Below are positions 6,351 to 34,413 of a stretch of 42,211 nt of DNA, in pieces. Within the stretch, counting starts at the first letter, position 1. The number at the start of each line of letters is the position of its first letter. Under the pieces are notes generated by a model, which searched no databases, had not been told where the DNA came from, and saw only the letters and a program-made list of their open reading frames with translations. The position numbers and the translations under genes were made by a program. The DNA is from Chlamydiales bacterium (lineage in GTDB: Bacteria > Chlamydiota > Chlamydiia > Chlamydiales > JBFIDQ01), in assembly GCA_041603795.1 (NCBI GenBank), contig JBFIDQ010000001.1:1-42211 (forward strand), read 5' to 3'.

Positions 6351-6394
6351 GTAGTAAAGCGATCTTTATTATAGAGACCAAGAGTAAATAAGAC

Positions 6395-6423
6395 TTGACT
6401 TTTGAGTCCAGTTGTGTTATAGT
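6395..6423 (+). promoter_or_regulatory. sigma70-type promoter P1 (rightward)
   Basis: TTGACT (6395-6400), a 17-nt spacer, then TATAGT (6418-6423) preceded by TGT. It is a 36-nt near-copy of the P2 region. Confidence 0.7.
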
Positions 6424-6429
6424 AGATAC

Positions 6430-6625: not shown

Positions 6626-6633
6626 AAAAGTGC

Positions 6634-6662
6634 TTGACATTTGAAGCCAGTTGTGTTATAGT
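6634..6662 (+). promoter_or_regulatory. sigma70-type promoter P2 (rightward early operon)
   Basis: TTGACA (6634-6639), a 17-nt spacer, then TATAGT (6657-6662). The alignment CTTGACaTTTGAagCCAGTTGTGTTATAGTAGcTAC differs from P1 at 4 positions. Confidence 0.7.
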
Positions 6663-6756
6663 AGCTACGTATATTGACAAGTGCAGAGGTTTCTACACGT
6701 TGGAATACTCAGACAGGTTTACTAGTTTCTACCTATCCTACGGCCAAGAGGAAGGC

Positions 6757-21155: not shown

Positions 21156-22603
21156 TGACGACAAGATATTCTGTAAATAAACAAAGGAATTCAAGTTATC
21201 TTGACATTGAATCGGCCTTTACAAATGCTGCGTTTTTAGGCGGCGGTAGATTTAATAGCTCGTTATTAACTTTGGATGGCGTTGGGGCAGATAGCACAAC
21301 CACGGGTACGTGGGTAAGCCTGGGTGTGTCGGAAGATCATTCAGGACTGCTGACCGAAGGGTCTTTAATGATGTGGCTAAACAGTGACTATGTAGCTGGA
21401 GGTCTCGATTCCAGCGGATCTGTGATTGCGGCAGTAAATGCCGCTTCGCTCCCGGCTTCAATAATGAATAGAGACGGCTCTGATGCAAATAGAGGAACTA
21501 TAGTTGTAGACCCGAATGGGTATATTGACAGCCAATTAGTTATACCTTCAACTGATGATGAATATTTGCATTATAATTTAAATATTGCTTGGCGAGGCAA
21601 GGGTTCGTGGATTCCAATAATTCATCAATGGAGTTCTTCGGGTAGATTCCAGACAATTGTTGATGGCCTTGTTGTTGCGGATTCGCAAATAGGAACCTAC
21701 GATTTTCATTCGTTGGACATGAATCCTTACGACGTAAGAGACCCTAACGCTTCCACTGATTCGGACGCGTTAAGAAATGTTGCTTTGCTTGATTCTTTTC
21801 AGGATATTGGATCACCGAAAATAAGAATTGGTTTTATAGGTGATTCGTTAATGAACTTTGGCGGATTCCCAGACTGGATGTGGAGCAGCAGAACAACTCA
21901 ACGCCCTGACTGGATACCTATTGAAAATTCTTTCGCTACTGCTGGCCCAAAAGGAATAGACGGCTCAAATGGTGCGGCAGCCGAGTCAGTAAACGGAAAG
22001 CATTATGATGCCGGTGCATTAACTACAATTATAAGAATGGCTCACAAATCAGGATACTTGTCTTCTAAAAACCTGAACTTCACACAGGGTGGAGCAACGA
22101 CAGCACAAATAAAGACAAATCTTAACAACCTATTGTCTATTGGTGTGCCAAATGTTGTTTTTTGCAATGCCGGACAGAACGATGCAAATGACGGTGCTAG
22201 CTTTGACGCATCAGCAAAAACAACCTTCGAATCAAATTTAAAGAGCATGGTATCTACAGCATACAATTCAAAAGTAAATCAGTTTATAACAAGCACGCTG
22301 CACTCAATGCAGAACAACACAACTTATTCAGATCAAGTGTACGCCGACAACGTTGATTACTGCAATGCGGTTATAAACAGTCTACCTCGCTGGTCTAAAA
22401 GACAAGGGTATGGCGATAAGTTTTTAAGGGTTGCTGACAATTTTACAGCTTTCGGCGGGCATTCGTTCGACTCTAATTTGTTCTTAACAAATGATGTTCA
22501 TCATTCAACTGCTGGAAGTTATCTTTTTGGATATGAAATGGGGAAAATGATAAGCGATATAGTCCTTGGTAAAAGGTTTATGGTAGGCGCAAGATCTAGT
22601 TAA
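21155..22603 (+). CDS. two-domain protein with C-terminal SGNH/GDSL hydrolase (putative polysaccharide esterase)
   Basis: Block I is IGFIGDSL. Block III is FCNAGQNDAND. Block V is TNDVHHS. The roughly 220-aa N-terminal region has no recognised motif. Confidence 0.7.
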   Translation: MTTRYSVNKQRNSSYLDIESAFTNAAFLGGGRFNSSLLTLDGVGADSTTTGTWVSLGVSEDHSGLLTEGSLMMWLNSDYVAGGLDSSGSVIAAVNAASLPASIMNRDGSDANRGTIVVDPNGYIDSQLVIPSTDDEYLHYNLNIAWRGKGSWIPIIHQWSSSGRFQTIVDGLVVADSQIGTYDFHSLDMNPYDVRDPNASTDSDALRNVALLDSFQDIGSPKIRIGFIGDSLMNFGGFPDWMWSSRTTQRPDWIPIENSFATAGPKGIDGSNGAAAESVNGKHYDAGALTTIIRMAHKSGYLSSKNLNFTQGGATTAQIKTNLNNLLSIGVPNVVFCNAGQNDANDGASFDASAKTTFESNLKSMVSTAYNSKVNQFITSTLHSMQNNTTYSDQVYADNVDYCNAVINSLPRWSKRQGYGDKFLRVADNFTAFGGHSFDSNLFLTNDVHHSTAGSYLFGYEMGKMISDIVLGKRFMVGARSS

Positions 22604-23223
22604 TGTCTATCCTAATAGGCACTCCAATGTTCGGTGGGCAGTGTACTCGTGATTACTTCGAGTCCTGCCTTAACCTGAAAGAAGATCTGGCAGAAATAGG
22701 GGTAAACCACGATTGGCTAACGGTAGCGAACGAATCCCTGATAACGAGGGGCCGGAACACAATAGCGGATACGTTTCTGAAAACAGATTTCGAGGCGTTA
22801 CTGTTTATCGATGCGGACATTCGGTTTCGCACAGAGGACGTAGCAAAATTATGGAATTTGAATGCCCCAATTGCAGTCGGCGCTTACAGGATGAAGTGCG
22901 AAGAAATCAAGTATAGTGCATGGAGGGATAACAAGATAGTCAATCTGCAGGACATAGAGGGCAAAGAACCCTTAAAGGTTGATTACGCAGCTACAGGCTT
23001 CATGATGATTCAAAGAGATGTCTTTGAGCAGATGAAAGATAAAGTAGAAAAATATGACGAAGAAGGGGAGAGATATGCTTTTTTCCAGGATCCCATTATT
23101 GACGGGATGCACATGTCAGAGGATTACTTCTTCTGTAAAACATGGCGAGACATGGGCGGGGAAATCCTGCTTGATCCGACAATCGAACTTGGGCATATTG
23201 GAACAGTAGAGTATGCCTCTTGA
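22603..23223 (+). CDS. glycosyltransferase (GT-A fold, DxD type)
   Basis: The translation shows GTPMFGGQC..., ESLITRGRN, LLFIDADIRF (DxD) and SEDYFFC. This pattern matches what I remember from a phage and bacterial glycosyltransferase family. It was not searched. Confidence 0.7.
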   Translation: MSILIGTPMFGGQCTRDYFESCLNLKEDLAEIGVNHDWLTVANESLITRGRNTIADTFLKTDFEALLFIDADIRFRTEDVAKLWNLNAPIAVGAYRMKCEEIKYSAWRDNKIVNLQDIEGKEPLKVDYAATGFMMIQRDVFEQMKDKVEKYDEEGERYAFFQDPIIDGMHMSEDYFFCKTWRDMGGEILLDPTIELGHIGTVEYAS

Positions 23224-23824
23224 AAACATCGGAATTGACCTATCGAACCATCCTGTTGTTCCTAACATCACTCGTGATGTGCTTCTTATTTGTGGTGGCG
23301 GGCATACGGTTTGGGATGACCTACAGCGACTCGGATTACCCAACTACCAGCCAGAATCAGCCCCATTCGATGTCATGTGCATCAACGACATCTACATGCA
23401 CTTCCCCTGGAGAGTACGGCACTTTTATTCCAATGATAAGAGATGGATGCCGAAGTGGCTGGCTGCGCGGAGAGAACTGTATTCATTGGAATTTGGAGGC
23501 GCTCCAGACACCCACTCCCTCAGAACAGGAGCAAAGTACAACTGGTTCTGGCCGGGACATGGAACAAGCAGCCTCAACGGAACGTACTGCGGGCTCGCAA
23601 TGGGCTATTCCAGAATCATTCTCTGTGGGGTTCCCCTAGACGACGGCCCACATTACTTTGAAGCACCTTGGCGCAAAACCAGATTCACAGGAGAAGTCCC
23701 TGAAAGAGAAAACGGGACAATGGCCTACTGGAGTAACGCGAAGAACAGGGTGTTTGACGGAAGGGTTTTCTCAATGTCTGGAAGGACAAGGGACTTGTTG
23801 GGAGAACCGGAATCACTGCAGTAG
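23213..23824 (+). CDS. DUF115/MptE-like protein (putative glycosyltransferase)
   Basis: LLICGGGHTVWDDL, CINDIY and GHGTSSLNGTYCGLAMGYSRIILCGVPLD resemble the Rossmann-like layout of motility-associated-factor/DUF115 proteins. This assignment is weak. Confidence 0.45.
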   Translation: MPLENIGIDLSNHPVVPNITRDVLLICGGGHTVWDDLQRLGLPNYQPESAPFDVMCINDIYMHFPWRVRHFYSNDKRWMPKWLAARRELYSLEFGGAPDTHSLRTGAKYNWFWPGHGTSSLNGTYCGLAMGYSRIILCGVPLDDGPHYFEAPWRKTRFTGEVPERENGTMAYWSNAKNRVFDGRVFSMSGRTRDLLGEPESLQ

Positions 23825-23835
23825 TTTTAGTGACA

Positions 23836-24360
23836 ATGGCGCGTTCACGATCCTCGTGGATAACGTCGTTGTTTCACAAGAAGGGTCTATGGTCTCCGCC
23901 ATCAAGATCAGGCGACCAGTGGAATAGAGCGGGTTATTGGGAGCATCAAGACCTTAAAAGACTGATAAACAACAACCGCAGGCCATTATATCCAGAGCCG
24001 GTAGTCTGCGACAGGATCCCTGACTTCAAGACTCTGTGGGACGTAGCCATGAGATCTATGGGCTACGAATCAGGCCATTGGGTTGTTAAGGTAGACGCAT
24101 TCTGTTATGACTGCTTTTGGGAATACAATCCTGTCTACGTCAAAGTATATCGCCCTCCTGAAATGATCCTAGACTCCATCATGAGAACGCCTTTCATGTA
24201 TAAGCAGGGTTACTCTAAAGGGAAGTGGACCGAGATAATAAAGAAGCATCACGATCTGATGGAGCAGATTGAGGGGCCGACAGTCAACGCAGAAAAAGTA
24301 TTCGCAGGCGATGAGTCGGAAATAGATGCAGTCATAGAATCATTGGGAGAGCCTGCATAA
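23836..24360 (+). CDS. hypothetical protein
   Basis: The ORF is open from GTG at 23830, and the first ATG is at 23836. It lies inside the glycan cluster. Confidence 0.6.
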   Translation: MARSRSSWITSLFHKKGLWSPPSRSGDQWNRAGYWEHQDLKRLINNNRRPLYPEPVVCDRIPDFKTLWDVAMRSMGYESGHWVVKVDAFCYDCFWEYNPVYVKVYRPPEMILDSIMRTPFMYKQGYSKGKWTEIIKKHHDLMEQIEGPTVNAEKVFAGDESEIDAVIESLGEPA

Positions 24361-25103
24361 ACGCAATCCATGAAACGGCAGTAATCCATCATACTGCAAT
24401 CTTAGGAAACAACAATACAATAGGCCCGTACTGCTACATAGGGCCGAGAACAATCATAGGGGACGGGAATACATTCACCTCTCACTGCGCAATAGGAACC
24501 AAGGCGCAGCATCGTGGCAAGCACGAAGATGGCTACGTTAAAATAGGCCATAGAAGCGTCTTTAGAGAATTCTCTCAGATAGGAAGATCAACAGAAGGCA
24601 TTCCTACGTTTGTTGGTAATAACTGTTATGTTATGGCTGGCGCCCATATACACCATGATTGTAACGTAGAGAACTTCGTTACCATTTGCAGTAACGCTGT
24701 ATTAAACGGCGCTGTTAGGGTAATGCAAGGAGCTACAGTAGGAAGCTCTGCTTCAGTTCATCAATGTCAGGTTATAGGTAGTTACTGTATGCTCGGAATG
24801 GGTAGTATCGTGACCAAAAAGGGCAAGTTAGTCCCAGGATATATCTACGCAGGTAACCCTGTTAAGAAACAAGGCAGGAATGAGATTGGCTTAAGCAGGG
24901 CTGACATATCCCCTGAAAAGATAAGAATTGAAACGATCAGGTACAAGAGACTAAAAGATGCCTTATCCCCAAAGGGAAGTGGAAACAAACACAGTAGCAT
25001 GCGTGTACTTCGAGAATTCGCAGAACAATGCGGTTCATCCGTTCTCAAGGGAATACAGCGACGAGTACGTTCACAGGTTGAACGACTGGGTAAAACAGAA
25101 TAG
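24357..25103 (+). CDS. LpxA-like hexapeptide-repeat acyltransferase without a canonical start codon
   Basis: The frame is open from 24315. The translation ...NAIHETAVIHHTAILGNNNTIGPYCYIGPRTIIGDGNTF...GAHIHHDCNVENF...GNPVKKQGRNEIGLSR parallels E. coli LpxA ([16 protein letters not shown]...AHIAHDC...) from memory. The first in-frame ATG/GTG/TTG is at 24633. The 5' coordinate is set at the ATA in the ATAA junction and is provisional. Confidence 0.65.
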   Translation: MNAIHETAVIHHTAILGNNNTIGPYCYIGPRTIIGDGNTFTSHCAIGTKAQHRGKHEDGYVKIGHRSVFREFSQIGRSTEGIPTFVGNNCYVMAGAHIHHDCNVENFVTICSNAVLNGAVRVMQGATVGSSASVHQCQVIGSYCMLGMGSIVTKKGKLVPGYIYAGNPVKKQGRNEIGLSRADISPEKIRIETIRYKRLKDALSPKGSGNKHSSMRVLREFAEQCGSSVLKGIQRRVRSQVERLGKTE

Positions 25104-25605
25104 CAGATGCAGGTTTGTTTGCATAACAGACCATGACATCCCCGGCGTTGAGACATTCAGATTTCAACAGCCAGAAAGAAACTACTGGACATGCCTTGAA
25201 GTATTTGGCCTTGATCTAGGCAACGTTTTGTCAATCGGACTGGATACTATCTTCACAGGCCCGATAGATCACTTCTTCGAGTATCGTGGAAGCCTTGGGA
25301 TGCTGCATGACCCTAACAAGCATGGCGTTAGCATCAATGGAGTTTTAAGGTTCCCTCACAGGCCGGACATCTGGCTTAATTACGTCAGAGACAAGGAACG
25401 TATCAAAAACAGATATAAGAATGAAATGGCTTACATAGCCAGCTATGCACATGACTTCCTCGATGACAAGTATCCGGGGCAGATATTATCCTATAAGAAA
25501 CATGTGCTATTGGGGGTGGAAACTAAAGACGCAAGAATCGTCTACTTCCACGGGAGACCGAAACCTAAGGATGTAGAATGGCAGGCAATACCTCAGAACT
25601 CATAG
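24958..25605 (+). CDS. putative nucleotide-sugar transferase-like protein
   Basis: The 215-aa ORF has the pattern VACVYF...EYSDEYVHRLNDWV...FVCITD...GLDTIF...YFHGRPKP, which recalls a phage glycosyltransferase-like family. This is from memory and weak. It overlaps the acyltransferase ORF by 146 nt. Confidence 0.5.
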   Translation: MPYPQREVETNTVACVYFENSQNNAVHPFSREYSDEYVHRLNDWVKQNSRCRFVCITDHDIPGVETFRFQQPERNYWTCLEVFGLDLGNVLSIGLDTIFTGPIDHFFEYRGSLGMLHDPNKHGVSINGVLRFPHRPDIWLNYVRDKERIKNRYKNEMAYIASYAHDFLDDKYPGQILSYKKHVLLGVETKDARIVYFHGRPKPKDVEWQAIPQNS

Positions 25606-27074
25606 CCGGGTTATTCAAGTACAACAAGCTGTTGTTTCATCGGCCTTACGGTCATCCTGACACACTCTGTCCCGATGGCAAGCTGTGGAAATCCCAAGGA
25701 TGGGAAACTTGGACAAACAAACCTTGGCAATTAGAGTTTCATAATGCTGGAAAAGACCATAAAGAACGACTCACTATCTGCGGAAACGGGGTCGGAAAGT
25801 CAATCTCAGGAGCCTATGAAACTGCTGTCCATGCTACAGGCATGTACCCTGAGTGGTGGGAAGGAGCAAGATACGACAGGCCGGTTAAGATATGGGTTGG
25901 AACCATCGATGCTCAGATGCAGCGAGAGTCCCCACAAGCCCTTCTGCTGGGTCCAAATCTCACACACGGACTAGGAACAGGGTTTATCCCTAAACACACG
26001 ATAGACGGCAAGCCACGCATTAAGCAGGCCGGCATGTCGGAAGTGGTAGACAGGGTTTCCATCAAACATGTATCTGGTGGCTTCTCTGATCTGACATTCA
26101 AGACCTATCAACAGGGTTGGCGCTCGTGGCAGGCTGCTGCCCCGGATGTCGTCTGGCTCGATGAGGAACCAGACGAGAATGACGGGAACCAGAGAGGGAT
26201 CTTTGCCGAGGTTCAGACTCGAATCTTTCGCTCGTCGGGTTATCTCTATGCCACTCTCACTCCCCTGCTGGGGGAGACAGCCCTCACTCAGCATTTCATG
26301 GACCCCCAAGCCCCAGGAATTTACCATGTGGGAGCAACATGGGACGATGCACCGCACCTCAAGAAAGAAGACAAGGATCGTCTGGCTGCAACATACCCGG
26401 CACATGAAGCTGAAGCTCGAATGAAAGGTGTTCCAATGATGGGTGAAGGCCGAGTCTTTACGATTGCTGAAGAAAGCATCGTTATCGACCCAATATACAT
26501 TCCGCCCCATTGGGCAAAGATATGCGGGATTGACTTTGGTTACGATCACCCCGCAGCAGGCGCATGGTTAGCATGGGACAGAGAAACAGATATTGTCTAT
26601 CTCTATGACTGCTACAAGAAGGCCAAAGAACTGGCTTACTACCATGCCTCCATGATTCGACAGCGCGGACAGAACATCCCTGTTGCATGGCCGCACGACG
26701 GCATGAATACAGAAAAGTCAGGTGGCACGGTCCTTCATGAGTCATATCGTCAGAATGGTGCGGAGAATCTGCTTGGAATGTCCGCAAGATATGACAAGGA
26801 TAGGGGTGGCGGCCAACCAGTAGAGCCTATCATTAACGACATGCTGGAAAGAATGCAGACAGGAAGGTTCAAGGTGTTCAAGACCTGTGAGCCCTGGCTG
26901 CAGGAATTCAGGAACTATTATCGCAAAGACGGTAAATTAAAACAGAAGGGTGATGACGCATTAAAGGCCAGCTTCTACGCATTGATGATGCTTAGGTACG
27001 CCGCCTCAGATGCAGAGTCAGGTACTTATCATAATAATGTTCCTTCACAGGGCTTCTCGATGGGGATGCAATGA
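25578..27074 (+). CDS. terL: terminase large subunit
   Basis: Walker A-like is CGNGVGKS and Walker B-like is VVWLDEEPD. The 498-aa length and the position upstream of the portal fit the call. Confidence 0.9.
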   Translation: MAGNTSELIAGLFKYNKLLFHRPYGHPDTLCPDGKLWKSQGWETWTNKPWQLEFHNAGKDHKERLTICGNGVGKSISGAYETAVHATGMYPEWWEGARYDRPVKIWVGTIDAQMQRESPQALLLGPNLTHGLGTGFIPKHTIDGKPRIKQAGMSEVVDRVSIKHVSGGFSDLTFKTYQQGWRSWQAAAPDVVWLDEEPDENDGNQRGIFAEVQTRIFRSSGYLYATLTPLLGETALTQHFMDPQAPGIYHVGATWDDAPHLKKEDKDRLAATYPAHEAEARMKGVPMMGEGRVFTIAEESIVIDPIYIPPHWAKICGIDFGYDHPAAGAWLAWDRETDIVYLYDCYKKAKELAYYHASMIRQRGQNIPVAWPHDGMNTEKSGGTVLHESYRQNGAENLLGMSARYDKDRGGGQPVEPIINDMLERMQTGRFKVFKTCEPWLQEFRNYYRKDGKLKQKGDDALKASFYALMMLRYAASDAESGTYHNNVPSQGFSMGMQ

Positions 27075-33911: not shown

Positions 33912-34023
33912 TCCAAAGAAGCTTCTCAAATCTATCCTAAAAAGGGATCCGTCTGTAAGGCAGACATCTGAAGAAGATATTCGTTATGCCTACGCTGCTT
34001 ACAAGCGTGGCACGCTGGACGGA

Positions 34024-34413
34024 ATGACCATAGAGGACGGGCTTAATCCTGAAGAATTCAGGGACAGGTTTATAGAAACTGTCACAAGCATGTTCTCATT
34101 CCAGTGGACTATAGTAGCCCAGTCAAAGAATGGTTTTGTCCCGATCGGATTTATCTTTGGAATCAACAATGGTGTCTATATCCACGTAGGAAGTTTAGTC
34201 TTCTTTGGGTGGGCATCCAAAAGAAACAAACTAGAGGGTGTGGCTAAGTTTCTGAATGACGTTCGTAAAGAGGCGTTAGTTCTCTGGTTAACTGAGACTA
34301 ACAATCAATTGTTCGCAACGATAGCAAAAACCAAGATCATCCGCAGGGTTGGCACAGTATATGACTTCGTTGACGAGCAATATGCACAGTATCAAACGGT
34401 AGCAACTGCATGA
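34024..34413 (+). CDS. hypothetical protein (frame open from 33706; true start unresolved)
   Basis: The first ATG after the upstream stop is at 34024. The same frame is open through the 112-nt gap without any ATG, GTG or TTG. Confidence 0.45.
   Translation: MTIEDGLNPEEFRDRFIETVTSMFSFQWTIVAQSKNGFVPIGFIFGINNGVYIHVGSLVFFGWASKRNKLEGVAKFLNDVRKEALVLWLTETNNQLFATIAKTKIIRRVGTVYDFVDEQYAQYQTVATA

Follow-up and report, generated by a model that had tools for sequence, protein, structure and literature searches.

A phage acyltransferase gene with a candidate AUA start codon and a conserved dual-coding overlap with the next glycosyltransferase gene

Introduction

Natural AUA start codons are already documented, and the infC gene of Escherichia coli starts with AUU. 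Measured in E. coli, AUA initiates at 0.02-3% of AUG (bioRxiv 10.1101/063800), while the AUA starts of Staphylococcus aureus infC, ccpN and the lineage-specific citZ reach ~10% of AUG in poor medium (PMC13009471). Ribosome profiling and reporters have validated the S. aureus starts, whose SD pairing is extended; those of ccpN and infC are conserved, and in citZ a lineage-specific ATG-to-ATA change has left the gene functional (PMC13009471). The phage locus described here is like these three genes in that a near-cognate AUA stands at a homology-defined start with an SD upstream (PMC13009471). It differs from them in being a candidate drawn from sequence alone, in its GGAG/GGGAG SD and in its -4 overlap with the upstream stop codon.

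The junction also resembles the ATGA/TAATG arrangements at which termination and re-initiation are coupled, sharing the NTGA-type -4 geometry and an intragenic SD (PMC6728339, PMC12548453, PMC2268962), and re-initiation is enhanced by SD sequences (PMC2268962). Unlike in those arrangements, the restart codon is AUA and not NUG; in this coupling literature, no test with AUA in that role was found (PMC6728339, PMC12548453, PMC2268962).

For the encoded protein, two described enzymes serve for comparison. LpxA, the acyl-ACP--UDP-GlcNAc O-acyltransferase of the lipid A pathway, which acylates the 3-OH of UDP-GlcNAc, has a left-handed beta-helix and an HxxHD catalytic motif, both of which are found in the protein of this locus; the context of the LpxA gene is lpxD-fabZ-lpxA-lpxB, whereas the gene studied here stands in a phage glycan cluster beside glycosyltransferases and terL. 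Pcryo_0615 of Psychrobacter cryohalolentis (PDB 8e62), an N-acetyltransferase of the UDP-2,3-diacetamido-2,3-dideoxy-glucuronic acid pathway, is likewise a short LpxA-type beta-helix (~180-210 residues) without the LpxA helical domain. The phage protein differs from 8e62 in its sequence (~32% identity), in an Ala for the His of a 'GGH' coil and in an extra tail of ~45 residues. A literature search on the PDB code 8E62 returned unrelated papers only.

Overprinting is known in phages, for instance in the embedded Rz/Rz1 spanin genes of phage lambda. The 3' end of the acyltransferase gene is like Rz/Rz1 in that one DNA stretch encodes two proteins in different frames and that the arrangement is conserved among relatives; it is unlike Rz/Rz1 in that the shared stretch encodes the C-terminus of one enzyme and the N-terminus of the enzyme after it.

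Results

Genome setting

The window (the whole DNA stretch analysed, 42,211 bp) is the complete contig C1 of a metagenome bin of 2.9 Mb in 395 contigs, and it is a tailed-phage genome. Its large terminase gene (terL, 25578-27074) encodes a protein with at most 44% identity to terminases of Proteobacteria phages, the gene after terL is likely the portal gene as judged from position and size alone, and blastn of the window against 50,697 phage records gave zero DNA-level matches. AGGAGG/AGGAG SD sequences precede genes that follow gaps in the same phage (29414, 30010 and 35150). The bin carries an LpxA-like gene of its own on contig C13, whose product is 34% identical to the acyltransferase of the window.

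Upstream of the acyltransferase lies an ORFan (24049-24360, + strand) that ends in TAA 24358-24360 and starts at ATG 24049 or else at GTG 23830 or ATG 23836. The codon-usage margin was +0.28 per codon over 24049-24357, within the span of confident genes (0.08-0.42), and -0.02 per codon over 23830-24048. The start at 24049 was also that chosen by the gene caller on a second assembly of this region (the Logan contig, see below). No homologue besides itself was found for the ORFan among 5.8 billion proteins. Its 3' part is certainly coding, its translation being judged from codon usage only.

Reading frame and stop/start junction

The acyltransferase ORF (24357-25103, + strand; 248 codons plus TAG) encodes a short LpxA-fold (left-handed beta-helix) sugar acyl/acetyltransferase and sits in a glycan-related gene run immediately upstream of terL. 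Its frame is closed by TGA 24312-24314 and then open from 24315 to TAG 25101-25103. No ATG, GTG or TTG occurs in this frame over 24315-24632, the first being ATG 24633, as a preliminary description of the sequence had stated and as the codon listing and an ORF scan agreed. In a stop-to-stop scan of the + strand ORFs of the contig, 106 codons lay ahead of the first canonical start of the acyltransferase ORF, against at most 61 in the other ORFs and at most 24 in the genes taken as real, and the acyltransferase gene was the only one to lack a start in such manner. The gene caller on the Logan contig called nothing between 24361 and 24957, and the acyltransferase product was in no protein collection; in an exact look-up, neither the 156-aa truncated product nor the 203-aa neighbour was on record.

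The candidate start codon, ATA 24357-24359 (+ strand), overlaps the upstream TAA 24358-24360 to form ATAA (-4 overlap), and the ATAA noted earlier at the upstream stop was thus borne out. That ATGA is what this genome 'normally' has at such places was overstated, since the genes of the late operon, most of which are joined by overlaps, have 7 junctions of -1 type (TAATG) and only 3 of -4 type (ATGA/GTGA). An SD-like GGGAG is located at 24345-24349 (+ strand), of which GGAG 24346-24349 is 7 nt upstream of ATA. The local fold of the junction RNA was unstructured (z = 0), and an out-of-frame ATG occurs at 24370, 10 nt past the upstream stop.

Entry into the frame at some other place was considered, namely at ATC 24339, ATT 24342 or ATC 24366, by -1 frameshift fusion with the ORFan, or as a truncated product from ATG 24633. 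Such routes are supported by the open frame from 24315 onward, by the N-terminal extensions (20-70 residues) of some family members and by ATG 24633 being the first canonical codon. Against them, no SD precedes 24339 or 24342, and the 14 open codons before ATA scored -0.51 per codon, their codon usage being that of the frame in which the upstream gene is read; the N-terminal third of the acyltransferase scored +0.153 versus +0.151 for the middle. The ATG at 24633-24635 (+ strand) has no SD upstream and is conserved, a Met at this place being common to 88% of 26 relatives, and a start there would cut 92 residues confidently modelled as beta-helix coils (block-mean pLDDT 76-98); this Met is internal and does not begin the protein. 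A -1 frameshift fusion was rejected, as 24315-24410 held neither an X XXY YYZ slippery heptamer nor a stimulatory structure (z = 0) and the upstream ORF had no similarity to the N-terminal extensions of the relatives. These other entry routes were rated very improbable.

Protein identity

The product matched Pfam Hexapep at 9e-20. A sequence search of the PDB returned 8e62 as best entry (2.6e-29), with LpxA entries at 1e-21 to 1e-24, and in Foldseek 8e62 was again the best fold (TMt 0.88, rmsd 2.3 A over 202 columns), with LpxA structures at E ~1e-12. The Hexapep coils begin at residue 3 after ATA, in the AF2 model as well, in agreement with the earlier statement that beta-helix coils run from about 24357.

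The protein had been called LpxA-like, which is apt for the fold; identity with LpxA itself was rejected. The scores against the NCBIfam LpxA equivalogs NF003657 and TIGR01852 were 148.4 bits (cut-off 226) and 133.4 bits (cut-off 231.05), there was no match to the LpxA C-terminal domain PF13720 (Acetyltransf_11) at E <= 0.01, which is present in the cellular LpxA homologues P0006, P0007 and P0010, the closest structure was 8e62, and the gene context is that of phage glycan genes. Some 30 phage relatives have lengths of 177-216 residues. In relatives, the gene has glycosyltransferase and MptE-like genes as neighbours, or its product carries a fused GT2 domain. The H-D of the 'AHIHHDC' motif was invariant across 26 relatives. 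The 'GGH' coil reads 'NGA' in the window, with Ala for a His that is found in 8e62 and in 88% of relatives, and the nearest relatives (P0028, P0030 and P0048) likewise lack this His. By similarity and predicted structure, the protein best fits a short LpxA-fold nucleotide-sugar N-acetyltransferase, the substrate assignment being putative.

Position of the N-terminus in relatives

The preliminary description had suggested comparing the junction in related genomes. The start codon was ATG in all ~30 relatives for which DNA was read, and among the relatives on phage-like contigs (~30) this ATG lay 21-38 codons upstream of a conserved IGP motif; the ATA of the window lies 21 codons upstream of the motif. 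At the same site, L004 reads aaaatATGAacttt (MNFIHHTAII), a true ATGA overlap, and the window reads ctgcATAAacgca ((I)NAIHETAVI). L045, with the same gene order as the window, has an SD and ATG (MQNDIHPTAII). In the sister lineage P0176/P0177 (53% identity; contigs of 7.1 kb and 4.5 kb, respectively), the product begins MNSIDPTAVV with its Met aligned to ATA. The product of a sister variant, P0026 (1.3 kb contig), has L as its first residue, perhaps from a TTG start.

In the alignment, the start Met of each of the readable relatives (P0176/P0177, L045 and L004) fell at most 1 residue from the ATA of the window. Because these Met align so closely and L004 has ATGA there, the comparison fixes the predicted N-terminus of the acyltransferase at ATA 24357. 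Initiation at ATA, ATC or ATT had been proposed; the position of ATA is supported by the Met of the relatives, and ATC 24339 and ATT 24342 are not supported, with no SD before either.

No relatives with more than 53% protein identity to the acyltransferase were found. The best relatives in IMG/VR, JGI metagenomes and GTDB genomes had at most 45% identity, the only genome of the same family was the window's own, 400 genomes of the same class held no closer relative, and neither did IMG/VR scans with the glycosyltransferase and with P0026.

That ATA derives from an ATGA overlap by a G-to-A change is plausible from these alignments. The same change underlies a possible, if somewhat doubtful, explanation of the locus, in which a very recent start loss (ATGA to ATAA) has made the gene a pseudogene; residual translation would then be irrelevant, and there would have been no time to decay. 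The ATG starts of all DNA-read relatives and the ATGA of L004 at this site argue for start loss, as does the fact that G-to-A is the one change there that keeps the upstream stop. Gene callers passed over the gene, and accessory glycan-modification genes are often dispensable.

Reliability of the base call

A Logan contig of run SRR29257391 (21.3 kb) was 100% identical to the window over 22458-25723 (3,266 bp), ATAA included. Since this second assembly is identical, ATAA as an artefact of one assembler is ruled out; a sample-specific allele is possible, as both assemblies may share reads. The sequencing error raised in the preliminary description is therefore unlikely. A related reading, in which a consensus error or a minority variant was fixed by the assembler and the real population has ATGA, finds support in the source, a fragmented metagenome bin, and is opposed by the Logan assembly, identical at the junction although possibly built from the same reads; it was given a very low probability. 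The options other than AUA initiation and recent start loss are, taken together, quite improbable.

Integrity of the acyltransferase gene

No stops, frameshifts or invariant-residue losses were found in the 248 codons. Compared with 26 relatives, 35 of the 40 columns with at least 85% conservation were kept. None of the 100%-invariant columns had changed, those of the catalytic H-D among them, and the stretch before the internal Met retained 14 of its 15 conserved columns. AF2 modelling from a 28-sequence alignment gave pLDDT of 93-98 for most of residues 1-203 and of 97-98 for residues 1-40.

No rate acceleration was apparent. Over 127 common columns, identity to the outgroup L002 was 49% for the window versus 41% for its sister L043, so the branch leading to the window is not the longer one. 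Relaxed constraint, considered in view of the His-to-Ala change and the pairwise identities, was rejected, as near relatives also lack the His and the window is nearer to the outgroup than its sister. The gene thus shows no sign of decay, which favours initiation at ATA over a recent start loss as far as sequence conservation can tell.

Dual-coding overlap at the 3' end

The next gene (24958-25605, + strand) encodes a glycosyltransferase of the phrog_1962 family (PHROG match 9.5e-35, residues 26-213) and starts at ATG 24958, so that the acyltransferase ORF overlaps it by 146 nt. Over 24958-25103 (+ strand), the frames of the acyltransferase tail (residues ~201-248) and of the glycosyltransferase N-terminus are offset by one base. 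Homologues of the glycosyltransferase were 59-74% identical, and their N-termini (NTVACVYFEN...EYV.RL) were conserved inside the overlap. A search with the glycosyltransferase found closer, syntenic relatives (L043/L042, L044 and L045), in all of which, as in the window, the acyltransferase is directly upstream, has a long tail and overlaps the glycosyltransferase gene by ~90-185 nt. In short relatives, the acyltransferase ends exactly at the glycosyltransferase start.

For a shuffle test, the glycosyltransferase protein was held fixed, synonymous codons were redrawn and stops in the tail frame were counted. Across four lineages, 0 stops were observed in the overlap versus 1.9-5.3 expected (~4.5 in the window), and the probability of an open tail frame was 0.003 for the window, 0.06-0.09 for L043, 0.0008-0.014 for L044 and 0.003-0.004 for L045. 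The tail frame held 9-23 stops in the rest of each glycosyltransferase gene, and the third frame held 2-3 stops within the overlap. As the tail frame has been kept open against expectation, dual coding is selected, and reading of the acyltransferase has extended to its end in the window lineage. The 3' overlap is, on the evidence of this test and of the syntenic relatives, a conserved, selected dual-coding region.

The tail was modelled as one long helix with low confidence (AF2 pLDDT 55-66), and its length and sequence varied among lineages; selection may act on no more than its presence or helical nature. Loss of a stop codon as the origin of the tail was rejected, given the tail shared by syntenic relatives and the selection seen in the shuffle test. 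The extension of the ORF 146 nt into the next gene had been described as odd; the overlap is real, and the oddity falls away with its conservation in relatives and its selection.

For a start-loss pseudogene, the open tail is a difficulty, since the ~4.5 stops expected once selection lapses are still missing. With no lesion in the gene or in its tail, the loss must fall in the small last fraction of the branch. Moreover, an AUA preceded by an SD should leak and not be dead as a start (bioRxiv 10.1101/063800, PMC13009471).

Discussion

Proposed initiation at AUA

We propose, with moderate confidence, that this is an intact phage acyltransferase gene translated by low-level, SD-assisted, termination-coupled initiation at AUA. 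The 3' end of the upstream ORF is coding by its codon usage, and therefore ribosomes should terminate there. Ribosomes finishing the upstream ORF at UAA 24358-24360 would be held by the GGAG 7 nt upstream of AUA, and re-initiation, or fresh 30S initiation, would take place on the overlapping near-cognate AUA with the ordinary initiator tRNA. The yield would be a few per cent of AUG output, giving a low-abundance enzyme whose C-terminal tail would share DNA with the N-terminus of the next enzyme, a glycosyltransferase. Initiation at such a low level is plausible from the efficiencies published for AUA (bioRxiv 10.1101/063800, PMC13009471) and from the effect of SD sequences on re-initiation (PMC2268962).

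Counted for initiation at AUA were GGAG at 7-nt spacing, the use of SD sequences elsewhere in the phage, the unstructured junction, the intact gene and the open tail frame. Counted against it were the ATG starts of all ~30 DNA-read relatives and an SD of only 4-5 bp that is not extended; the out-of-frame ATG 24370 could also capture re-initiating ribosomes. Genuine AUA starts are rare and G-to-A transitions are common, which weighs in the same direction. A private initiator tRNA of the phage for ATA was rejected: no tRNA genes were found in the window, a UAU-anticodon tRNA was absent among the 35 tRNAs of the bin (CAU-anticodon tRNAs numbered 3), and a single gene is affected.

Two origins of the AUA are conceivable: a weak start favoured by selection, or a G-to-A change in an AUGA overlap that is recent, hypomorphic and tolerated. 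Selection for a weak start would mean that the enzyme is made far below its neighbours; AUA in the window, perhaps TTG in the sister lineage, and the overlap that ties the tail and its translation to the glycosyltransferase start would fit such a view, which we nevertheless consider unlikely. If selected, the weak start together with the overlap would be a compact device that fixes the relative amounts of two enzymes in the same glycan-modification pathway.

Implications of the junction and of the overlap

If AUA is used, the junction would be a clean natural near-cognate start in a phage -4 stop/start overlap. Genes started in this way are invisible to standard gene callers, and any relatives that start likewise would escape annotation too. 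The junction would make a simple system for asking whether ribosomes tolerate a wider choice of start codons when they re-initiate, a question that the coupling papers cited above do not address. If the locus shows only a fresh start loss, the change is an unremarkable mutation of an accessory gene. The conserved dual-coding overlap is better supported than the reading of ATA as a start, and it provides a well-supported example of two-frame selection at an enzyme-enzyme junction.

Overlap of the acyltransferase and glycosyltransferase genes

The tail of the LpxA-fold acyltransferase and the N-terminus of the downstream glycosyltransferase are encoded by the same nucleotides at 24958-25103 of the window, and a corresponding dual-coding overlap was found in three relatives in which an acyltransferase gene lies directly upstream of the glycosyltransferase gene (L043:436-551, L044:424-545 and L045:682-818). 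No stops were present in the acyltransferase tail frame within the overlap in these four lineages, against 2-5 expected; the overlap is conserved and its tail frame is kept stop-free across all four. Some protein relatives were much longer than the acyltransferase of the window (P0004, 422 aa; P0029, 604 aa; P0031, 625 aa). P0004 is a natural fusion in which the acyltransferase relative is joined to a glycosyltransferase domain of the GT2 type (PF00535 in the precomputed Pfam annotation), so that the two activities are carried by one polypeptide there, whereas they are encoded by overlapping genes in the phage of the window.

Region upstream of the acyltransferase

No overlapping gene lies in front of the acyltransferase gene of L045, a syntenic relative; the sequence there (L045:1-80) holds a hairpin together with a TTGACA-like element, and this arrangement indicates that coupling to an upstream ORF is not universal in this group. 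For the upstream ORFan, the gene preceding the acyltransferase in the window, a gene caller chose ATG 24049 as start, 224 nt (23825-24048) after the previous gene's stop at 23824; in the 5' part of the ORFan, from GTG 23830 to 24048, the codon-usage signal was not clear (-0.02 per codon). An ATG lies 10 nt 3' of the ORFan stop, in the ORFan frame, and opens a mini-ORF of 4 codons (24370-24384, ATG AAA CGG CAG TAA). This ATG could catch re-initiating ribosomes, in competition with the acyltransferase ATA.

Other features of the window

In a second late gene (33912-34410) the first ATG lies at 34024. The 18 codons in front of it (33970-34023) have coding-type codon usage (+0.35 per codon), and the only in-frame candidates before that ATG are ATT 33979, ATC 33934 and CTG 34015. 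Alternatively, this gene may begin at GTG 33706, giving a 206-nt overlap.

Two near-consensus sigma-70 promoter-like copies (TTGAC(T/A), 17 nt, TATAGT) were located at 6394-6429 and 6633-6668, with 89% identity and a spacing of 239 nt; they are probably tandem early promoters.
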